Shown: one piece after another, positions 7,976-56,709 of the stretch
Layout: each line of letters begins with the position of its first letter
How positions within the stretch are numbered: position 1 is the stretch's first letter
Origin: Bdellovibrionota bacterium
GTDB taxonomy: Bacteria > Bdellovibrionota_C > UBA2361 > JBGSMV01
Length of the DNA stretch: 56,709 bases
Direction: 5' to 3'
Assembly (NCBI GenBank): GCA_044356455.1
Contig: JBIKWF010000014.1
Coordinates: 1-56,709 of the forward strand
The notes under the pieces: model-generated
The model's database searches: none
The model's input: only the letters and a program-made list of their open reading frames with translations
What the model was told of the DNA's origin: nothing
Made by a program: the position numbers and the translations under genes

Positions 7976-7987
7976 GCGTGGTAGACT

Positions 7988-8226
7988 CTAGCCTGATCAT
8001 CTCACAGCCCCCAAGGGCTGTGAGATGATCGGGCTAGCTAACGCCGGACGGCGTTAGCAAATCGCGACCAACGGGAGCATCGCGCCACTGGCGCGTAGAG
8101 ACGCGACGGAGCGCACCGGAGAGCGACGCTGTTTAGGCGGCGCTCGCAGGTGCGCGATGTTGGAAATTCGCCTGGATGGAGGATTTCCAACGCAGTCTCA
8201 CGGACCCGTTAGGGATCCCGTGAGAC
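7988..8226. repeat. Multi-hairpin intergenic element (REP-cluster/MITE-like or structured RNA); probable bidirectional terminator
   Basis: 23-bp stem 7988-8010/8015-8037 followed by four more stems, ending in GTCTCACGG...CCGTGAGAC; lies between convergent genes. Confidence 0.65.
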
Positions 8227-8233
8227 ATGACGG

Positions 8234-8767
8234 CTAGCTCTTACGGGCCGCTTTCTGAAGCTCATCAAATACCTCCTCGATAAAAAAGGTTGTTTTGGCT
8301 GGGACTGATTTTTTCGGATAGTAATCTTCAATCAACGAAATAACTTGGCTTGAGGCCGATAGGGCGAGATATTTTATAAGAAAGATTACATCATCCCGGT
8401 CGCTGCTATCCCACCGGGCACTTATGCACTTCATCGCTAGCATATACCGGGCATCGGGCGCCCAGACTCTCAAGTGGGATAACATGAGCACCTGCTGCTT
8501 CATGAATCCCGGTTGTATGAAGCCTTTGGCTCCGTCGTTTAGCCAGTCACTTCGAAGTCCTTCAGCGATAGCAATTTTATCAGCCAATCTACGAATGAGT
8601 GCTGACGGTTCGAAGATGGCATCGACATCTTTCGTAGATACCCGGGCGTTGAAGACCAGGCACATTACAGCGCCACCAACGATTCCGATTTCCCCCTGAG
8701 AGCCTGAAGCCTTAAGTTCCTCATTGAGCAGTTCGAAAAGACGGAGGATATCATTGGTGCCTAGCAT
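8234..8767 (-). CDS. Nucleotidyltransferase-fold protein (DUF6036/AbiEii-like), putative toxin
   Basis: IVGGAVM...RVSTKDVD (GG + TxDxD), WLNDGAKGF, LAMKCISAR...DRDD. Confidence 0.8.
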   Translation of the reverse strand: MLGTNDILRLFELLNEELKASGSQGEIGIVGGAVMCLVFNARVSTKDVDAIFEPSALIRRLADKIAIAEGLRSDWLNDGAKGFIQPGFMKQQVLMLSHLRVWAPDARYMLAMKCISARWDSSDRDDVIFLIKYLALSASSQVISLIEDYYPKKSVPAKTTFFIEEVFDELQKAARKS

Positions 8768-19196: not shown

Positions 19197-20300
19197 CTAA
19201 AGATCAAGCAGCACTGCTGCAATCCATGGAAATGCCACGGTTACGTCGCTTTGAATAATTTGATAGTAGCTCTCAGTGGAAAGCTTGTCCCAAGTGATCT
19301 TCTCTTTTCCTCCTGCCCCCGAGTAAGAGCCGTAGGACATGGGGGAGGAGCCTATCTCAATAAACCCAGCCCAATCGCGAACTTTAGGAAGCCGTAAGTC
19401 GTGCTTAATCGAAGGCACCACGCATATTGGGAAGTCGGCGGCGATTCCGCCCCCAAGCTGAAGAAATGCGATAGGGTGCTGCTTTGACTCTTTAAGATAC
19501 CAGTCATACATCAAGTGAAAGTAGTCGAGCCCAGATTTCATGACGCTGGGACTTACGGTGACATCCCCTTTCTTCTTATGGGGACCCGCATACGTGTAGC
19601 TCGCAAAGATATTGCCCATCGTTGAGTCTTCAAACCCAGGCACTACTATCGGGATATTCTTTTGATAGGCCGCGTATGCCCAGCAGTCATGTGGATTTGC
19701 TTTCTTATCGGGAGAGACGAGCTTTTCTGCGAAGAGACGACGAAAGTACTCATGGGGGTAATACGACTGCTTCTTCTTTTCAGCGTCTTTCCACATCTTG
19801 AGAAGATGCGGCTCCATGATGCGAACGCTTTCTTCCTCGGGGAGAAAGGTATCGGTGATTCTGCGAAAGCCCGCGTCGCGCAGTTCTGCCTCTTGGTGAG
19901 GGGTGAGCTCTGTGTAGCGTGGTATATGCGCATAGTGAGAGTGGGCCACGTAGCGGTAGAATGACTCCTCGTGATTTGCGCCCGTAGCAGATACTAAGTG
20001 AACCTTATTTTTGCGGATGAGCTCAGCCAACATCACGCCCACCTGGAAAGAGCTAAGGGCCCCAGCGACGGTAACTACGAGCTTTCCGCCTCCCTTGAGG
20101 TGCTTCTTGAGCCAGCGGGCTGCTTCCATGGTTGAGCCACCGTTGCAGTGGTTCAGCGTGCGCTCGGCGTAAGCGGATACTTTTCGGGAGCTCTTGGATA
20201 TCTCCTGAGAGAGAGGCAATTTCCCGGCGCTGCCCACTTTGTCGTAAGAAATAAGTTTTCGGAGTTCAGGAGAGAGCTTCTTTAGGGTGCTGTTTTTCAT
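19197..20300 (-). CDS. Deoxyhypusine synthase-like protein (possible homospermidine synthase)
   Basis: TVAGALSS, SATGAN, PGFEDSTMGN, QLGGGIAADF, SYGSYSGA..EKITWDK with the catalytic Lys position retained, SDVTVAFP. Confidence 0.88.
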   Translation of the reverse strand: MKNSTLKKLSPELRKLISYDKVGSAGKLPLSQEISKSSRKVSAYAERTLNHCNGGSTMEAARWLKKHLKGGGKLVVTVAGALSSFQVGVMLAELIRKNKVHLVSATGANHEESFYRYVAHSHYAHIPRYTELTPHQEAELRDAGFRRITDTFLPEEESVRIMEPHLLKMWKDAEKKKQSYYPHEYFRRLFAEKLVSPDKKANPHDCWAYAAYQKNIPIVVPGFEDSTMGNIFASYTYAGPHKKKGDVTVSPSVMKSGLDYFHLMYDWYLKESKQHPIAFLQLGGGIAADFPICVVPSIKHDLRLPKVRDWAGFIEIGSSPMSYGSYSGAGGKEKITWDKLSTESYYQIIQSDVTVAFPWIAAVLLDL

Positions 20301-49962: not shown

Positions 49963-50253
49963 ATGAGACGAGAGAGAAGGAAGTTCACGAAGGAGTTCAA
50001 GGTAGAGGCTGTTCGGTTAGCTGCGCAGCGAGGGGCGGGACCCGCAGCGGAGAGTCTTGGGATAGACCTATCGCTGCTCTATCGGTGGCAGAAGCAGCTA
50101 GAGCAGGAAGGGCCTGAGGCGTTCCGAGGCAACGGCAATCGCACCGGGCTTGAGGAGGAGAACCGCCAGCTGCGGCTTGAGAACCGCCGACTGCGAGAGG
50201 AGGCTGATATCTTAAAAAAAGCGGCAGCGTACTTCGCGAAGCACCAGCGGTGA
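49963..50253 (+). CDS. IS3 transposase OrfA
   Basis: RRKFTKEFKVEAV HTH, LYRW, coiled coil, ILKKAAAYF. Confidence 0.93.
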   Translation: MRRERRKFTKEFKVEAVRLAAQRGAGPAAESLGIDLSLLYRWQKQLEQEGPEAFRGNGNRTGLEEENRQLRLENRRLREEADILKKAAAYFAKHQR

Positions 50254-51128
50254 AGTACGCATTTATCGAGGAGCGCTTGACGGGGTACCCGGTGTCGACT
50301 CTGTGCCGGGTACTTGGGGTGAGTGCCCAGGGGTACTATGCGTGGGCGAAGCGTCCGGCGAGTACTCGGCGGCAAGAGGACCAGCGCCTATCGGCAAGAA
50401 TCCGGGTTATCCACGCTGAGACCAAGCAGAGCTACGGGAGTCCTCGGATTCATGATGAGCTGCGAGATCAGGGGGTTCGGTGTGGCAAGAAGCGAGTAGA
50501 GCGGCTGATGCGAGAAGAAGCGCTGTGCGCCAAGGCAGGAAGGAAGTTCAAGGCAACAACCGACTCCGCGCACGACAAACCAATCGCACCAGACTTGGTA
50601 AAGCGGGACTTCATGGCGCCAGCTCCGAACCAGGTGTGGGTAGGCGACATCACTTACCTGTGGACTAGCGAAGGGTGGCTATACCTCGCGGTGTTCATAG
50701 ACCTGTACTCGCGTAAAGTGGTGGGCTGGGCGACGGGTCCACGCATCACCAGCACCTTGGTGCGGCTTGCCTTTATGCGCGCCGTGGCGCGCCGTAGGCC
50801 TCCGCCAGGCATCATCGTGCATAGCGACCAAGGGTCGCAGTATGCCTCTGCGGCGTATCGAGCGGCTCTCGCTGAGGTGCAGGCTCGCCAGAGTATGGGT
50901 AGCCGCGGAGATTGCTACGACAACGCGGTAGCAGAAAGTTTCTTCCACTCGTTCAAGGTTGAAGCCATTCAGGGCTCCGACATTGAAACCAGGCGGGAGA
51001 TGGAGGTAGAAGTGTTCGAGTACATCGAGCGATTCTACAACAAACGAAGAAAGCACTCCGCCATCGGATTTCGGTCCCCGGAGCAATTCGAAAACGGAGC
51101 TTTTAGTAACCGAAAGGCTGCCGCTTAA
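50250..51128 (+). CDS. IS3 transposase OrfB (DDE integrase core)
   Basis: YGSPRI, WVGDITY, DLYSR, HSDQGSQY, DNAVAESFF, YNKRRKHS. Confidence 0.95.
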   Translation: MKYAFIEERLTGYPVSTLCRVLGVSAQGYYAWAKRPASTRRQEDQRLSARIRVIHAETKQSYGSPRIHDELRDQGVRCGKKRVERLMREEALCAKAGRKFKATTDSAHDKPIAPDLVKRDFMAPAPNQVWVGDITYLWTSEGWLYLAVFIDLYSRKVVGWATGPRITSTLVRLAFMRAVARRRPPPGIIVHSDQGSQYASAAYRAALAEVQARQSMGSRGDCYDNAVAESFFHSFKVEAIQGSDIETRREMEVEVFEYIERFYNKRRKHSAIGFRSPEQFENGAFSNRKAAA

Positions 51129-51155: not shown

Positions 51156-51878
51156 CCTTGTGGATTTACCACCCCAGCAGTAATAGCCAATTCCTTAGTA
51201 GGCAAATAAATTGCAGTCATACCTAAAGTTGAATATGGAACGGTCAGAGCCATTACTGGATTGAAGCTGAGGGCTGGATTAAGAAACTGCTGGCTACCTT
51301 TGCCATGTGCAAACTCATTCATATCGCCAGCGGTACTGCTGATAGTAGCGAACTTGCCAAGCGCTAAACCAAACTTGGGTGTTAAAAACTGGGTAAGAGT
51401 AACCTGTGGCAACACAAAACTATTATCTGCTTCGGGAAATAAGTCATTGGCGTTAGTTCCAAGAAGCGATCCTGTTTTTTTTGTAAGTGGATTACCGAAA
51501 TTGCCTTCTCCCATTACTGTGATAAGTCCCCCAGGCCAAAGCCCCATCTTACTGGTATCAAGATTCATGGTGGTTTCTCCTCGTCCCGAGTATTCCCATC
51601 CAGTATCGATTCCTCCAGAGACAACGCCTTGAGTAACTTGTGTGAGGTTTAGATCAAAAGTTACTCCTTTATTCGCCCAATCCTGTCTCGTCCCTCCCCA
51701 ATCACCGCTCAATGTCGTTCTATCAGTAAAGTCTCCCCTATAATCCGGCGTAATAAGAATTTGGTCTTTATTCTGAACAGGTGCCTTAGAATTGGTCCCG
51801 TTTTCAGCGCAAATATTACCAACAATTATAAGCTGCGATATTACGTTGACGACTAAAACTGCGATTGTTTTTTTTCAT
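51156..51878 (-). pseudogene. Carbohydrate-selective porin (OprB family), frameshifted and IS-truncated
   Basis: LSGDWGGTR..W..KG, QGVVSGG, GLWPGG, F.NPALSFNP; ATG 51878 overlaps the FGE stop but is out of frame by one base in an A8 run; ends at the IS3 IRR. Confidence 0.8.
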
Positions 51879-52903
51879 ACTTTTGACTTTGCACACCTAA
51901 ACCCAATATGAGACATACCCGTATCTGGAGGCGTTCCACGCCGCGCAGCGGGCCTATAACTTTCACAGTAACTGACATGACACAGAAACGAGCCTCCTTT
52001 GGTTACACGCTCCTCCTGCGCTGGGTTTATTGGATTCGAACTCTTTGTAGGCCCAGCAGGATTGTGACATGAGGGCTCATTGGCACGCTGCACGAAGGTA
52101 TCTGGACGGTACCAATCGCTGCACCACTGCCACACATTTCCAACCATATCGTAAAGACCAAGGCCATTAGGAGGAAAGGATCGGACTGGAGAAGTTCGAA
52201 GATAGCCATCTTGCGCAGTGTTTTTATATGGGAAATCTCCTTGCCAGGTATTTGCCATAAATTTTCCATTAGGCATTGCTTCATCACCCCACGGAAATTT
52301 TTTTTGTTCTAATCCTCCGCGCGAAGCAAACTCCCACTCGGCTTCTGTCGGCAGTCTTTTTCCTGCCCATTTAGCGTAAGCCTCGGCATCAAACCACGAC
52401 ACCTGTACGACTGGGTGCTTCATTCGGCCCTTCAAATTGCTTGTAGGACCTTCCGGATGCTTCCAGCTCGCGCCAGGAACCCATCGCCAGAAATTTGCCA
52501 TGTTACTCAAATCGACTGGGCCTTCTGAAGGAGTGAATACCATCGATCCGGGAACAAGCACGCTCTCGTCCGGCTTCACCGCATCAGGTGGGAGTTGTTT
52601 CTTAAGCGCATCCCAATCTGGCTTGCGCTCCGCGGTTGTTACGTATCCGGTCGCAGTAACAAATTTTTGAAAGTCTTGGTTTGTCACCGCATACTGATCA
52701 ATCCAGAACCCGTCGACTTCTACCTCATGCGGGGGCCCTTCGTTACGCCGACTGCTGTCATCCTGACTTCCCATGACGAATTTTCCACCAGGAATCCAAA
52801 TCATTCCCGGTGGCTTGGATGAGGGTGCGGGGGTAGCGCCCGCTAAAGAGGGGACCGCAAAGATTAAAAGACTAAAGAGAAGAATTTTTAATGTTTGATG
52901 CAT
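51875..52903 (-). CDS. Formylglycine-generating enzyme family (sulfatase-modifying factor)
   Basis: IPGGKFVMGS, HPVVQVSW, RLPTEAEWEFA, GLYDMVGNVWQW, KGGSFLCHVSYC..YR, HIGFRC; start ATG 52903 with signal peptide. Confidence 0.92.
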   Translation of the reverse strand: MHQTLKILLFSLLIFAVPSLAGATPAPSSKPPGMIWIPGGKFVMGSQDDSSRRNEGPPHEVEVDGFWIDQYAVTNQDFQKFVTATGYVTTAERKPDWDALKKQLPPDAVKPDESVLVPGSMVFTPSEGPVDLSNMANFWRWVPGASWKHPEGPTSNLKGRMKHPVVQVSWFDAEAYAKWAGKRLPTEAEWEFASRGGLEQKKFPWGDEAMPNGKFMANTWQGDFPYKNTAQDGYLRTSPVRSFPPNGLGLYDMVGNVWQWCSDWYRPDTFVQRANEPSCHNPAGPTKSSNPINPAQEERVTKGGSFLCHVSYCESYRPAARRGTPPDTGMSHIGFRCAKSKV

Positions 52904-52908
52904 TCGAT

Positions 52909-53886
52909 TCAATCCGGGAACACACTCTTCCAATCGGCTTTCATATCGACAACAGTCCAGCCTTTTGCGCGTGCCTCGTCCCACCCTTTATCAAACTTTC
53001 CGATAGGTGACTCGCGGTCATATGCCCATTCACGTTCGGCATCAGTGTGATGAACAAAGAGACAAAAGCGTGGCCCAGGACCCGCTGCGGTCCACTGCAG
53101 CATTTCCAAATCGCCATCAGAATTTCCAAATGCAGCAATGGGACGACGACCAATGTGCTGATTGATGGCCACAGGCTTGCCGCCTTTATCATCGAAAAAG
53201 TTAAGCTCAGGTAGCCGAACAAGCACCGGCATGCCGTCCCTCATCTCAAACTTGGTCTTAATGCTGCTGCCAATAACCTGCTCAGGTGGAATGCCGTACA
53301 CTCGCTCGGACCAGGGGCGCATGAATTCGATGCCACCACCTGAAACGATGTAGGTCTTAAAGCCATTGGCGCGAAGGTAATCCAATAATTCGCGCATGGG
53401 CTGATAAATCATATCGGTCAACAGCTTACCGCTCTTGGGATGCTTAGCTTTGGCCAACCAGTCCTTTACGATAGTTGCAAACTCTTCGCTGGTCATACCT
53501 GCGTGTGTGGCCATGACCATTTCTAAGAGTGCGCGCTCACCGCCCGCCAGAGCAGCCTTGGTGTCGCCTTTGAGCACAGAAGCAAAGGGTTCCATATTCT
53601 TCCACTCCGGATGCTTCGGTGCGAGTGCTTTGACGCGGTCGATGGCAAAGAACAGCTGAAAATACATGGGCTGTTCGGCCCAGAGCGTACCGTCATTATC
53701 AAATACGGCAATACGATCTGCGGGCTCTACAAAGTCAGGAGAGCCGCGCGTAGTAATCTTCTCGACAAACGCGATGATGGCAGACTTGCTTGGACTATCA
53801 TTCCAGGAACTTAGCTGTTGGGCTTCGGCAGCGCCGATGGCAACGCAAGAAATGAAGAACGCAGCAAGTTGAGCGAGGACTTTCAT
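52909..53886 (-). CDS. Exported HAD-family hydrolase (acid phosphatase-like)
   Basis: AVFDNDGTLW, IVSGGG, GKP, FGNSDGD, HHTDAEREWAYD; signal peptide. Confidence 0.9.
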   Translation of the reverse strand: MKVLAQLAAFFISCVAIGAAEAQQLSSWNDSPSKSAIIAFVEKITTRGSPDFVEPADRIAVFDNDGTLWAEQPMYFQLFFAIDRVKALAPKHPEWKNMEPFASVLKGDTKAALAGGERALLEMVMATHAGMTSEEFATIVKDWLAKAKHPKSGKLLTDMIYQPMRELLDYLRANGFKTYIVSGGGIEFMRPWSERVYGIPPEQVIGSSIKTKFEMRDGMPVLVRLPELNFFDDKGGKPVAINQHIGRRPIAAFGNSDGDLEMLQWTAAGPGPRFCLFVHHTDAEREWAYDRESPIGKFDKGWDEARAKGWTVVDMKADWKSVFPD

Positions 53887-53905
53887 GGCATGATCATTGG
53901 TTCTA

Positions 53906-53947
53906 GGATACCGGGAGCTGATTTTTTTTGGGGCAGCCCCCGGTATC
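53906..53947. other. Intergenic stem-loop within the sulfatase operon
   Basis: GGATACCGGGAGCTG ... CAGCCCCCGGTATCC inverted repeat between the sulfatase stop and the HAD start. Confidence 0.6.
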
Positions 53948-53955
53948 CAATCTAG

Positions 53956-55539
53956 CTATTTACCGACTGAAACCATGCCCTTAACTTGCTTCTCCAGCGA
54001 GTCGAGACTCCAATCCCCTGGCGTCTGGCTCGGTGGAAAGTCCTTAAAAGTCATAAGGAACTTACTCGCTAGCGTCTGCAGAGGAACGAGCACAAAAGCC
54101 CTGTCAATCATCCAGTCGTGGTAGGTATTGGAGTTGTGCTGAGATTTCTCGAACGGATCGCGCCGCAAATTGAAGAGCAACGGGAGACGTAGATGAACGA
54201 ATGGCTCACGCCACACTTGCAGCTGTTCAGCGCGGTTCTCCAAATAAACCGCCTTCCAATCGCCCACTCGGATTGCGACTATTTCACCGGCGTCGTTTAC
54301 ATATATGAACTCCTTTCGCGGGGAGTCCTTCGCTTTGCCACTTAGGTAGTCGAGCATGTTGTAGCCATCAACGTGGTTCTTATAGGTTCGCCCGTTTAGG
54401 GCTACGCCCTGAAGTAGCTTCTCTTTAATATCGGAAGCGCCAGCGGCCGCGGCGAACGTTGGCAACCAGTCTTCGTGCGACACAATGCCGTTGAGAGTCT
54501 CTCCAGCGGGGAAATTCCCAGGCCAGCGAATGAACGCCGGTACTCGGAAGGATCCTTCCCAATTGGAATTCTTCTCTCCGCGAAACGGCGTTGTGCCGGC
54601 GTCGGGCCAGGTATTGTAGTGAGGGCCATTATCAGTCGAGTACTGAACGATCGTGTTGTTTGCAAGCCCGAGCTCGTCTATCAGCTTGAGTAATTCACCA
54701 ACGTGCATGTCGTGCTCGACCATACCGTCGCCGTACTCGTCCTGACCTGAGAGGCCGATGTGCTCAGCCTTGACATGGGTTCGAAAGTGCATTCTGGTTC
54801 CGTTCCACCAACAAAAGAACGGTTTGCCAGCCTTTGCCTGTCGCGTGATGAAATCCTTGGCGGCAGCTAACGTTTCTTCATCAATAGTCTCCATTCGCTT
54901 CTTGGTCAGAGGGCCGAGATTCTCGATTGTCTGACCGCCCTTGCCGTCGGCTCTAGATTTAATCACGCCGCGCGGCCCGAACTGTTCAAGGAAAGTCTTG
55001 CCGTTGGGAAGCTTCATATCCCTCGGATAGTCCCGATTCTCCGGTTCTTCCTCGGCATTTAGGTGGTAGAGGCTACCGATAAACTCATCAAAGCCATGCA
55101 CCGTCGGCAAGTGCTCGTCGCGATCTCCTTGGTGGTTCTTGCCAAATTGGCCCGTCATGTATCCCTGGCTCTTTAAGACCGTTGCCATGGTTACGTCGGA
55201 TTTCTGCCAGCCTTCCTTCGCACCGGGCATGCCCACTTTGGTCATACCCGTACGAACCGGTACGCTGCCGTTGATGAAGGCGGCACGACCCGCGGTGCAC
55301 GACTGTTGGCCATAGTAATCTGTGAACGCCACGCCTTCTTTGGCAATGCGATCAATATTTGGGGTCTTATAACCCATCATGCCGCGGTTGTTATGGCTTA
55401 CGTTCCAGGTCCCGATGTCGTCACCCCAAATAACGAGTATGTTGGGTTTTTTGTCCGCCGCCTGTGCTGGAGCGATGGCGCAAAAAAAAGCCGCGCCCAC
55501 CGTCAGCAGCGATAAGCTGTAGTAACGTAATTTTTTCAT
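53956..55539 (-). CDS. Arylsulfatase (Cys-type, formylglycine-dependent)
   Basis: PNILVIWGDD, SCTAGRAA (CxAxR), GKNH, STDNG, GEKNSNWEG, LFNLRRDPFE; signal peptide; AAGGAG RBS. Confidence 0.95.
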   Translation of the reverse strand: MKKLRYYSLSLLTVGAAFFCAIAPAQAADKKPNILVIWGDDIGTWNVSHNNRGMMGYKTPNIDRIAKEGVAFTDYYGQQSCTAGRAAFINGSVPVRTGMTKVGMPGAKEGWQKSDVTMATVLKSQGYMTGQFGKNHQGDRDEHLPTVHGFDEFIGSLYHLNAEEEPENRDYPRDMKLPNGKTFLEQFGPRGVIKSRADGKGGQTIENLGPLTKKRMETIDEETLAAAKDFITRQAKAGKPFFCWWNGTRMHFRTHVKAEHIGLSGQDEYGDGMVEHDMHVGELLKLIDELGLANNTIVQYSTDNGPHYNTWPDAGTTPFRGEKNSNWEGSFRVPAFIRWPGNFPAGETLNGIVSHEDWLPTFAAAAGASDIKEKLLQGVALNGRTYKNHVDGYNMLDYLSGKAKDSPRKEFIYVNDAGEIVAIRVGDWKAVYLENRAEQLQVWREPFVHLRLPLLFNLRRDPFEKSQHNSNTYHDWMIDRAFVLVPLQTLASKFLMTFKDFPPSQTPGDWSLDSLEKQVKGMVSVGK

Positions 55540-55650: not shown

Positions 55651-55917
55651 CTAGCGCGTTACCAGTTCAAGCTCATTGCCCCAACCAGCCCATCCTGGCC
55701 GACTCTTGCGGCAAAACAACTCTATACGCTTTTCTATCTGTACCGGGGCTACTTCTTTCTTTGCATACCAGGAAACTTTCCTACTTATTCTCCGATACAA
55801 GATCCCCGTGAGGCTACTAAGATAGACGACGCGATAGAGCTGCGTCTGCTCAGGCGTTCTTCGGCGATAATGCTGGAGCGAGTTCTTGGTGCTCTCCCAG
55901 CGGCGACACTGCAACAC
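55651..55917 (-). pseudogene. Possible IS91-family transposase N-terminal remnant
   Basis: HYRRRTPEQTQLYRVV resembles the Y-x-R-R-x-P-E-x-T-x-L-Y start of IS91-type transposases; no Zn-finger or HUH motifs follow. Confidence 0.45.
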
Positions 55918-56002
55918 CTAGCATAATCGGCAATTGGAGCGGGAAGTTGCCTGCCGAAAACTATCGTGTGAGGCGCAAAATTTCCGTAAATTTTACGTAA
56001 AT

Positions 56003-56182
56003 AGCCTCAACACTCTTCAATACCCTACAACACCCTTCAACAAGTTCTTCGTGCTGAGTGGCGACAATGTTTAGTTGAAGGACGTTGAAGGGTGTCGACC
56101 GGTAATGTGCCCAGCAAACTTAAAAGAGATTAGGTCTTGTTGAGGGGTGTTGTAGGGTGTTGAGGCTTATTGAGGAGTGTTG
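56003..56182. repeat. Imperfect inverted repeat array of CAACAC-type units
   Basis: ACCCTACAACACCCTTCAACAAG vs CTTGTTGAGGGGTGTTGTAGGGT; TCAACACTCTTCAATA vs TATTGAGGAGTGTTGA; AGCCTCAACAC vs GTGTTGAGGCT. Confidence 0.7.
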
Positions 56183-56251
56183 ACCGGTGTTGCGCTTGTT
56201 TGCGGAAATTCTCGGATAGCGGGAATGCCTGGAAACAAGAAAGTTAGATAT

Positions 56252-56286
56252 GCCGGGCTGATGGAACTGGTAGACATACAGGACTT
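56252..56286 (+). tRNA. trnL: tRNA-Leu(UAA) 5' exon (intron-interrupted; 3' exon not in window)
   Basis: GCCGGGC-TG-ATGGAACTGGTAGACAT-A-CAGGA-CTT gives acceptor 5' strand, Leu-type D arm and anticodon 5' strand, ending at U34. Confidence 0.88.
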
Positions 56287-56709
56287 ATAGAAAAAATGAG
56301 CCACGGAGCGGCGACGTTCCGATGGGATGCTGGCTAATTCGGTGAAGCCCCTTCAATTTGAATTGAGAGGTAACGCCGAGCTAAATCATCCGGGTAAAAC
56401 CGGATGTAAATGTGTAGAGATCATACACCAGCCATCCCCCGAAGCCTTCTTGTCCACCGCATCTTTAGCGGAGGTGGAGGCGGCGGGGGATGAAGACATG
56501 ATCCAGACCACGAACTTTGAATTGAAAGATTCAAAGGCGGTGAAAACCGAAGGTAAGTTCGCAGAATTTGAAATAATTTCTGCGGCTAGGAGTCTGTCCC
56601 GTAGGACGGGCCAGACTCCATAGGTACAGCGCTCCCCGAAGGTCGCGCGGGTGAAGTAATAGATTTTATAGTCTTACGCGCCTAATTTTTAGGCTTCTTT
56701 CCAATACAT
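56287..56709 (+). ncRNA. Group I intron (IC3/trnL type), 3' end not resolved
   Basis: P1 CUU/GAG; P3 GCTGG 56329-33 with CCAGC 56428-32; P4 TTCGGTG/CGCCGAG; P7 GATCA 56419-23 with TGATC 56499-503; P8 CATCCCCC/GGGGGATG; P9-type hairpins to about 56550. Confidence 0.88.

Follow-up and report, generated by a model that had tools for sequence, protein, structure and literature searches.

The window, meaning the whole stretch of 56,709 nt that was analysed, is the entire contig C101 of a Bdellovibrionota genome assembly (G000), so the structured stretch at its right-hand end, which had been flagged in the original prediction as standing where a tRNA 3′ exon was expected, is cut short by an assembly break. 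The features at this end of the window are:

55911..56121, no strand: island right-arm-like sequence, which elsewhere runs into a stray tRNA-Leu 3′ half (sequence match)
56118..56125, plus strand: att-core-like octamer matching the anticodon loop of tRNA-Leu(UAA) (sequence)
56252..56286, plus strand: 5′ exon of tRNA-Leu(UAA), its last base being the first anticodon U (alignment with C209)
56287..56588, plus strand: 5′ 302 nt of a group I intron, with the whole catalytic core and most of an enlarged P9 region (RF00028, C209 and relatives)
56438..56490, plus strand: extra P8 hairpin, absent from the introns of three relatives (alignment and fold)
56507..56549, plus strand: P9.0 5′ strand (56507-56510), P9 (56515-56536) and P9.1 (56538-56549), from folds; we take these helix names to apply by analogy with known group I introns
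56552..56588, plus strand: relic of an ancestral 3′ end (56552-56557) and start of a 66-nt lineage-specific P9.2/P9.3 block
56586..56589, no strand: CTAG target, the sole CTAG of the gene, with TA or CTAG as the duplicated bases (empty site on C209, reciprocal junction on C69)
56589..56623, plus strand: 35-bp terminal inverted repeat, which forms a 31-nt hairpin at 56589-56619 (same at both end types; fold)
56589..56709, minus strand: right end of a multicopy insertion sequence (IS) of about 1564 bp, putatively of the IS1182 family, inside which the contig breaks
56680..56694, plus strand: weak terminator-like hairpin inside the IS, facing the tRNA transcript (−6.5 kcal/mol)
56689..56709, minus strand: last six codons and stop of a predicted 449-aa transposase, antisense to the tRNA (in-frame arithmetic)

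The group I intron matched RF00028 over the full length of the model (47.1 bits, E = 7.8e−10; gathering score 50), and its core (P3-P8) was nearly invariant across five aligned copies. Matches to the Rfam models L2-leader and mir-616 were under the cut-off and were rejected. An intact paralog lies at C209:10253-10685, where ARAGORN called a tRNA-Leu(taa) gene with a 348-nt intron at position 36/37. The intron is inserted after the first U of the anticodon, as read on C209, and its terminal G stands before the 3′ exon, as read on C69. The window and C209 are collinear at 94% identity up to the CTAG at 56586-56589, and since all of this sequence is also present in the paralog, everything noted up to position 56588 is intron. 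The 5′ exons of C101 and C209 differ at two positions. The insertion point in the anticodon is the same as that of the tRNA-Leu(UAA) group I introns of cyanobacteria and plastids (RF00028), from which the G000 introns differ in their enlarged P8 and P9, their duplication and their island-like settings.

In an alignment, the introns of three relatives (G003, G021 and G117) end straight after P9.1, at the position equivalent to GGTAAG in the window. The P9 extension is not shared by these relatives: the 66-nt P9.2/P9.3 block and the extra P8 hairpin were found in both G000 copies, the block also on C69, and in none of the three. The original prediction had placed the P9-type hairpins and GGTAAG (56552-56557) correctly, as we found on re-reading the letters, and its expectation of an exon at GGTAAG was reasonable, since the introns of the relatives end there. 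In the present intron, however, GGTAAG is not a working 3′ splice site, because C209 reads GGTTAG at this point and its intron ends 66 nt beyond. The further stems that had been described also exist: the flagged 210 nt had a fold z of −4.64, with 0 of 200 shuffles folding as well, and the hairpin at 56589-56619 alone had a fold z of −4.97. The description of the sequence as extra and structured was thus right as to structure but not as to a single insert, as 56558-56588 is intron, with the same sequence in C209, and only 56589-56709 is the end of an IS. The P9.3 hairpin of C209 (10601-10630) has no other copy elsewhere in G000 and matches multicopy short repeats in three genomes of the same order (G087, G105 and G110), which suggests from sequence similarity that it was derived from a dispersed repeat.

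ARAGORN called 0 complete tRNAs in the window and a scan for the start of the exon with a T-loop behind it found nothing on C101, in agreement with the earlier statement that the 3′ exon was missing. Across the genome the same scan found four places: one on C69, one on C198 and two on C209. On its minus strand C69 carries 120 nt of foreign DNA, then CTAG, the last 36 bases of the intron and the whole 3′ exon; beyond the CTAG it shows 1 difference to C209 in 87 nt. The assembly holds two intron 5′ parts (C101 and C209) and two intron tails (C69 and C209), and so C101 pairs with C69 by elimination. We infer that C101 joins C69 through the IS and that the locus goes on there, through the second IS end and the tail of the intron to a 3′ exon which is intact; in the assembly and the Logan pieces no contig, read or record spans from one to the other through the IS. 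The suggestion that a mobile element in the P9 region had displaced the exon was therefore borne out, the second IS end, the tail and the exon all sitting on C69.

The sequence at 56589-56709 recurs identically at nine contig ends, and a second type of end was found at six; both types begin with the same 35 bp, as terminal inverted repeats. All 15 ends lie within 150 nt of a contig end and are preceded by CTA. Only two of them (on C101 and C69) touch an intron, the other 13 being elsewhere; by eye, four are inside miniature elements of the MITE type and one is beside a decayed repeat. The interior of the IS was not assembled in G000, in which the profiles PF05598, PF13358, PF13586 and NF033551 gave 0 matches. 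A single PF01609 match on C213 was rejected as the IS transposase, there being no matching ends nearby. Among 124 genomes of the phylum, only G000 had more than two matches to the repeat. The exact 31-nt repeat was found in 0 metagenome contigs and a shorter pattern in 0 viral contigs, while a looser pattern was found at 17 metagenome loci, all of them short MITE-type pairs going by the ORFs listed. Blastn against plasmids with both IS ends gave no matches or short ones at chance level, including two 20-nt matches to IS630 which were rejected on this ground, and the inner parts of the ends had no match in plasmids or metagenome contigs. A 40-aa frame starting from the left IS end had 0 homologues and is on the wrong strand for a transposase.

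The length of the IS and the state of the site were read from Logan contigs of four lake metagenome runs (X1-X4; 32 of 92 pieces listed). A record of 1554 nt starting at position 56594 was present in X1, X2 and X3, and one of 1414 nt in X4. The depth of the 1554-nt record was 46.8, 80.9 and 25.8 in X1, X2 and X3 respectively, several times that of neighbouring records, although Logan depth is not a copy number. With five outer bases added per end, by symmetry, the IS would be 1564 bp long. Comparison of filled and empty sites fits a target duplication of either TA or CTAG. An empty allele of the window gene is present in one run, X4, where one contig leaves the window at 56589 into a tail of the C69 type and the window-type intron is matched without any difference by a record of 220 nt. 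X3 has an empty continuation of the C209 type at 56589. The intron records of X1 and X2 both break off exactly at 56589, which we interpret as the fork between filled and empty forms; the filled junction itself was not among the 32 of 92 Logan pieces listed.

The IS very probably belongs to the IS1182 family, an assignment made from its terminal codons and not from the whole protein. A search of five genomes which share the repeat found a full-length element in G124 (L343:208-1886, on G124:C164) of 1679 bp with CTA/TAG flanks, the left end of which is identical to that of the G000 IS at 15 of 16 bases. Its 440-aa ORF has DUF772 and DDE domains and scored 366.9 bits on NF033551 (IS1182; cut-off 270). 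The IS5 family proper was rejected on the scores of this relative, the only one scored (74.2 on NF033581, cut-off 140; 20.3 on NF033580, cut-off 110). The left end of the G000 IS stops on a ribosome-binding site and the codons M-P-T, the same start as that of the G124 ORF, and on the minus strand of the window the right end gives ...L-M-Y-W-K-E-A-stop, so that the assembled ends contain three N-terminal and seven C-terminal codons of the predicted transposase. From start to stop there are 1350 nt (450 codons), in frame at an IS length of 1564 bp and not at 1563 or 1565, a test which by itself is passed one time in three by chance. Tblastn with the G124 transposase found an IS1182 N-terminal remnant at C154:89438-89361 of G000, just inside a MITE-type repeat, and the left IS end shares the start stretch with this remnant (69% over 26 aa). 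Upstream of an annotated IS1182 gene of Halomonas are CTA and the same first eight letters. The nearest named plasmid matches of the G124 transposase were Halomonas WP_035561699.1 (58.9% identity) and the transposase of ISKpn6 (50.5% identity).

IS1182 elements are about 1.3-2 kb long and are filled by one ORF. The G000 IS has in common with the family its terminal inverted repeats and a short target duplication, and on the predicted length and reading frame it would also share the size class and the one ORF, of some 440-450 codons with the start M-P/G-T; it is distinguished by repeats which are 35 bp long, perfect and self-palindromic. For comparison, ISPse1 is listed as 1653 bp with IR 16/16 and DR 4 in the available text of PMC3281130, and the available text of PMC8432936 contains no statement on the target duplication of ISKpn6.

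G000 also contains many MITE-type elements: among 261 repeat matches there were 78 paired elements, including 50 of 111 bp and 9 of 263 bp. These share the first 16 bases of the IS, and the C154 remnant ties them to IS1182; they are probably descended from a sister IS1182 element, judging by these sequences. Their flanks lean to TA within YTAR (TTA/TAG in 5 of 78 and CTA/TAA in 6 of 78), with 13 of 78 having no TA on one side. The G124 IS1182 element has a 160-bp MITE family of its own. Solo 31-nt terminal hairpins were found in G000 at C33:7313 and C208:8104, and at L049:1433-1469; these are possibly minimal mobile units or deletion scars. Other repeats in the window are an IS3-family element at 49963-51128 (transposase 357.4 bits on NF033516), which adjoins a cluster of sulfatase and formylglycine-enzyme-like genes (51875-55539), and a second dispersed repeat of about 250 bp at 7985-8237, with copies of 75-85% identity on at least 11 other contigs.

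Both intron-bearing genes lie in island-like settings. The sequence at 55911-56121 was 84% identical to C198:2396-2176 and, over 94 nt, 87% identical to C209:19576-19668, each of which is followed by a tRNA 3′ half, and this arm sequence was also found in G001. The octamer at 56118-56125, which may act as an att core, lies between inverted arms at 56005-56044 and 56136-56175 (a 40-bp inverted self-match of 85%), giving the order arm, core, arm before the tRNA. On C209 a host tRNA-Leu in a core-gene neighbourhood (gene names read from ORF starts) is cut at the anticodon loop; the intron-bearing gene lies 152 nt beyond the cut host tRNA and is followed by an AbiEi/AbiEii pair, with a stray 3′ half 9.4 kb further on. 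All five of the intron-bearing tRNA-Leu(UAA) genes compared (two in G000 and those of G003, G021 and G117) are at a cut half or an att-like junction, and in G015, G029, G033 and G058 the cut half is followed by a second gene with no intron. Layouts of this type were seen at 55911-56251 in the window, at C209:10063-10685 and 19576-19725, on C198, and at loci L141, L144, L146, L143, L111, L301 and L294. No integrase was found at either G000 locus, the four tyrosine-recombinase matches in the genome all being elsewhere. An integrase-like label for the ORF beside the G033 tRNA was dropped as the ORF had no NCBIfam or Pfam match.

By analogy, this layout resembles tRNA-dependent lysogeny as set out in the available text of Guerrero-Bustamante and Hatfull 2024 (PMC10865867): on C209 too the host gene is interrupted in its anticodon loop, with a whole tRNA of the same isotype after it. 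Unlike the system in that text, the replacement tRNA in G000 has a group I intron and neither locus has an integrase. On C16 of G001 (L139, near 14212) the left arm follows a complete tRNA 3′ half, and in G000 (C209:10095-10110) it directly follows the cut 5′ half, as if the G000 3′ half had been deleted between short repeats. At viral loci L148-L267, a tRNA 3′ exon stood behind an intron-end pattern in 42 of 120 among the matches listed, some of which are duplicates, and in 37 of these 42 a 5′ half lay upstream, for the most part at a distance of 197-225 or 495-790 nt. Group I-like introns thus look common in phage tRNA genes, going by these patterns, and the longer ones possibly carry ORFs.

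We consider that the locus is explained by the insertion of an IS1182-family element into one of two intron-bearing tRNA-Leu(UAA) genes, with a probability of approximately 0.87. Both junctions, the empty paralog, the multicopy ends and, in one run, the empty allele were directly observed. A recently active IS of about 1564 bp, with 35-bp repeats and an antisense DDE transposase, would have jumped into the single CTAG of the gene, in the peripheral, lineage-specific P9 extension. This site lies outside the catalytic core, 36 nt before the terminal G. The IS would transpose by means of its own ends and independently of the intron, and because it is multicopy the assembler would have broken the contig inside it. 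The IS would have arrived by ordinary DDE transposition into CTAG and have been retained at a harmless site, and in the simplest account it would be tolerated because C209 supplies an intact tRNA-Leu(UAA).

Out of 7601 CTAG sites, 621 are G/C-flanked, and the chance of nine copies hitting one of the two intron CTAGs is about 0.2% or about 3%, depending on which total is used. This low figure calls for survival bias or some preference for structured DNA; it should not be read as intron targeting, as it is post hoc and 8 of the 9 right ends are elsewhere. Some partners of the ends must be missing, since there are nine of one type and six of the other, and with these unequal counts IS-mediated rearrangement may have taken place at the locus.

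It is possible, although we think it somewhat unlikely, that the filled intron still splices, removing the 1.56-kb IS from the pre-tRNA so that the gene stays working, an outcome which is compatible with the IS insertion and differs from it in function only. In its favour, the catalytic core is upstream and intact, both exons are intact (on C101 and C69) and the introns of the relatives do without the disrupted block altogether. When the two junctions were folded locally with an N linker, the inverted repeats formed a 40-bp helix, with P9.0 pair probabilities of 0.75-0.98 in the filled form and 0.80-0.99 in the empty paralog; this local fold, however, omits about 1.3 kb of the IS, and the filled form lacks the basal P9.2 stem. 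Six RNA runs contained a share of 0.05-0.13 of the sequence words, which is no evidence on splicing. The antisense transposase gene and the weak terminator-like hairpin also lie in the path of the transcript (two terminator-like sites were found against 1.0 ± 1.2 in shuffles, which is not above chance), and C209 removes the need for the filled gene to work. More doubtful again is the further idea that, through such splicing, a DDE IS is hidden in a tRNA intron as a dated first step of an IStron-like symbiosis, with a transposon class that is not known from IStrons and with filled and empty alleles coexisting in the same lakes, and that IS loss leaving a hairpin explains the additional hairpins in P8 and P9. 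As each end is a 31-nt hairpin and solo hairpins occur in the genome, an IS that was later lost could leave a peripheral helix behind. Among the openly licensed PMC and bioRxiv papers listed by literature searches, none dealt with a DDE IS within the group I intron of a tRNA, which is weak evidence of absence.

A chimeric join near 56555-56589 is improbable. The contig does end inside a repeat, X3 and X4 show an empty continuation at 56589 and the junction is uncovered by the Logan records listed. Against this, C101 and C69 are separate contigs whose junctions mirror each other at one CTAG and have the CTA flank found at every one of the 15 ends, their overlap falls well short of an assembly word, and the records of X1 and X2 stop at 56589.

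The original prediction had also offered an IStron, a homing endonuclease or a nested RNA as the cargo of the P9 region. An IStron-like chimera, with intron and IS mobile as a single unit, is very improbable. IS material does lie in the P9 region, as in IStrons according to the available text of PMC4853749, but 13 of the 15 IS ends are away from any intron, the intron occurs with no IS on C209 and in X4, and the IS has terminal inverted repeats, duplicates its target and lies wholly within the intron (36 nt inside its 3′ end), whereas the ends of an IStron coincide with those of its intron. The homing endonuclease is discounted as the insert is a genome-wide repeat and the intron-specific part held no ORF, endonuclease or other, except a 98-aa frame across the ribozyme core; the nested RNA gives way to the end of a terminal-inverted-repeat IS which is found at many non-intron sites.

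Least credible of all is the other proposal of the same prediction, that the 3′ end of the intron served an integrative element for attachment and that the exon was displaced in this way. There is an att-like setting at 56118-56125, but it precedes the tRNA and corresponds to the anticodon loop. The break at 56589 falls in a CTAG, has inverted-repeat ends and lies 36 nt ahead of the terminal G; C69 has both tail and exon in intact form, and 0 of the 4 tyrosine-recombinase matches are on C101, C69 or C209.

The insertion of the IS1182-family element can be compared to two known systems. Like the IStrons CdISt1 and BcISt1 (Tourasse et al. 2014, PMC4227781), G000 has IS DNA in the 3′ region of a group I intron. 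In the available text of that paper, IStrons have IS200/IS605 or IS607 ORFs and no target duplication, and their components are never found apart, whereas the G000 IS duplicates its target, occurs separately from the intron and has ends which point to IS1182. The nearest precedent, by analogy, is the Thiomargarita dsrA “MITEtron” (Flood et al. 2016, PMC4853749), described in the available text as a MITE in P9 of a group I intron. Both cases combine a bacterial group I intron with a genome-wide inverted-repeat element in its P9 region. The MITEtron has a non-coding MITE in a protein gene; in G000 the element is probably a full-length IS, the intron is that of a tRNA gene, and an empty paralog and an empty allele are available for comparison.

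The finding is of a real but ordinary IS insertion in a redundant tRNA intron, which accounts for the contig break, and the parent of the MITEs in G000 is probably IS1182 and not IS5. If the filled intron splices, it would be a natural test of how chimeras of IS and intron begin, a question left open in the available text of PMC4227781.
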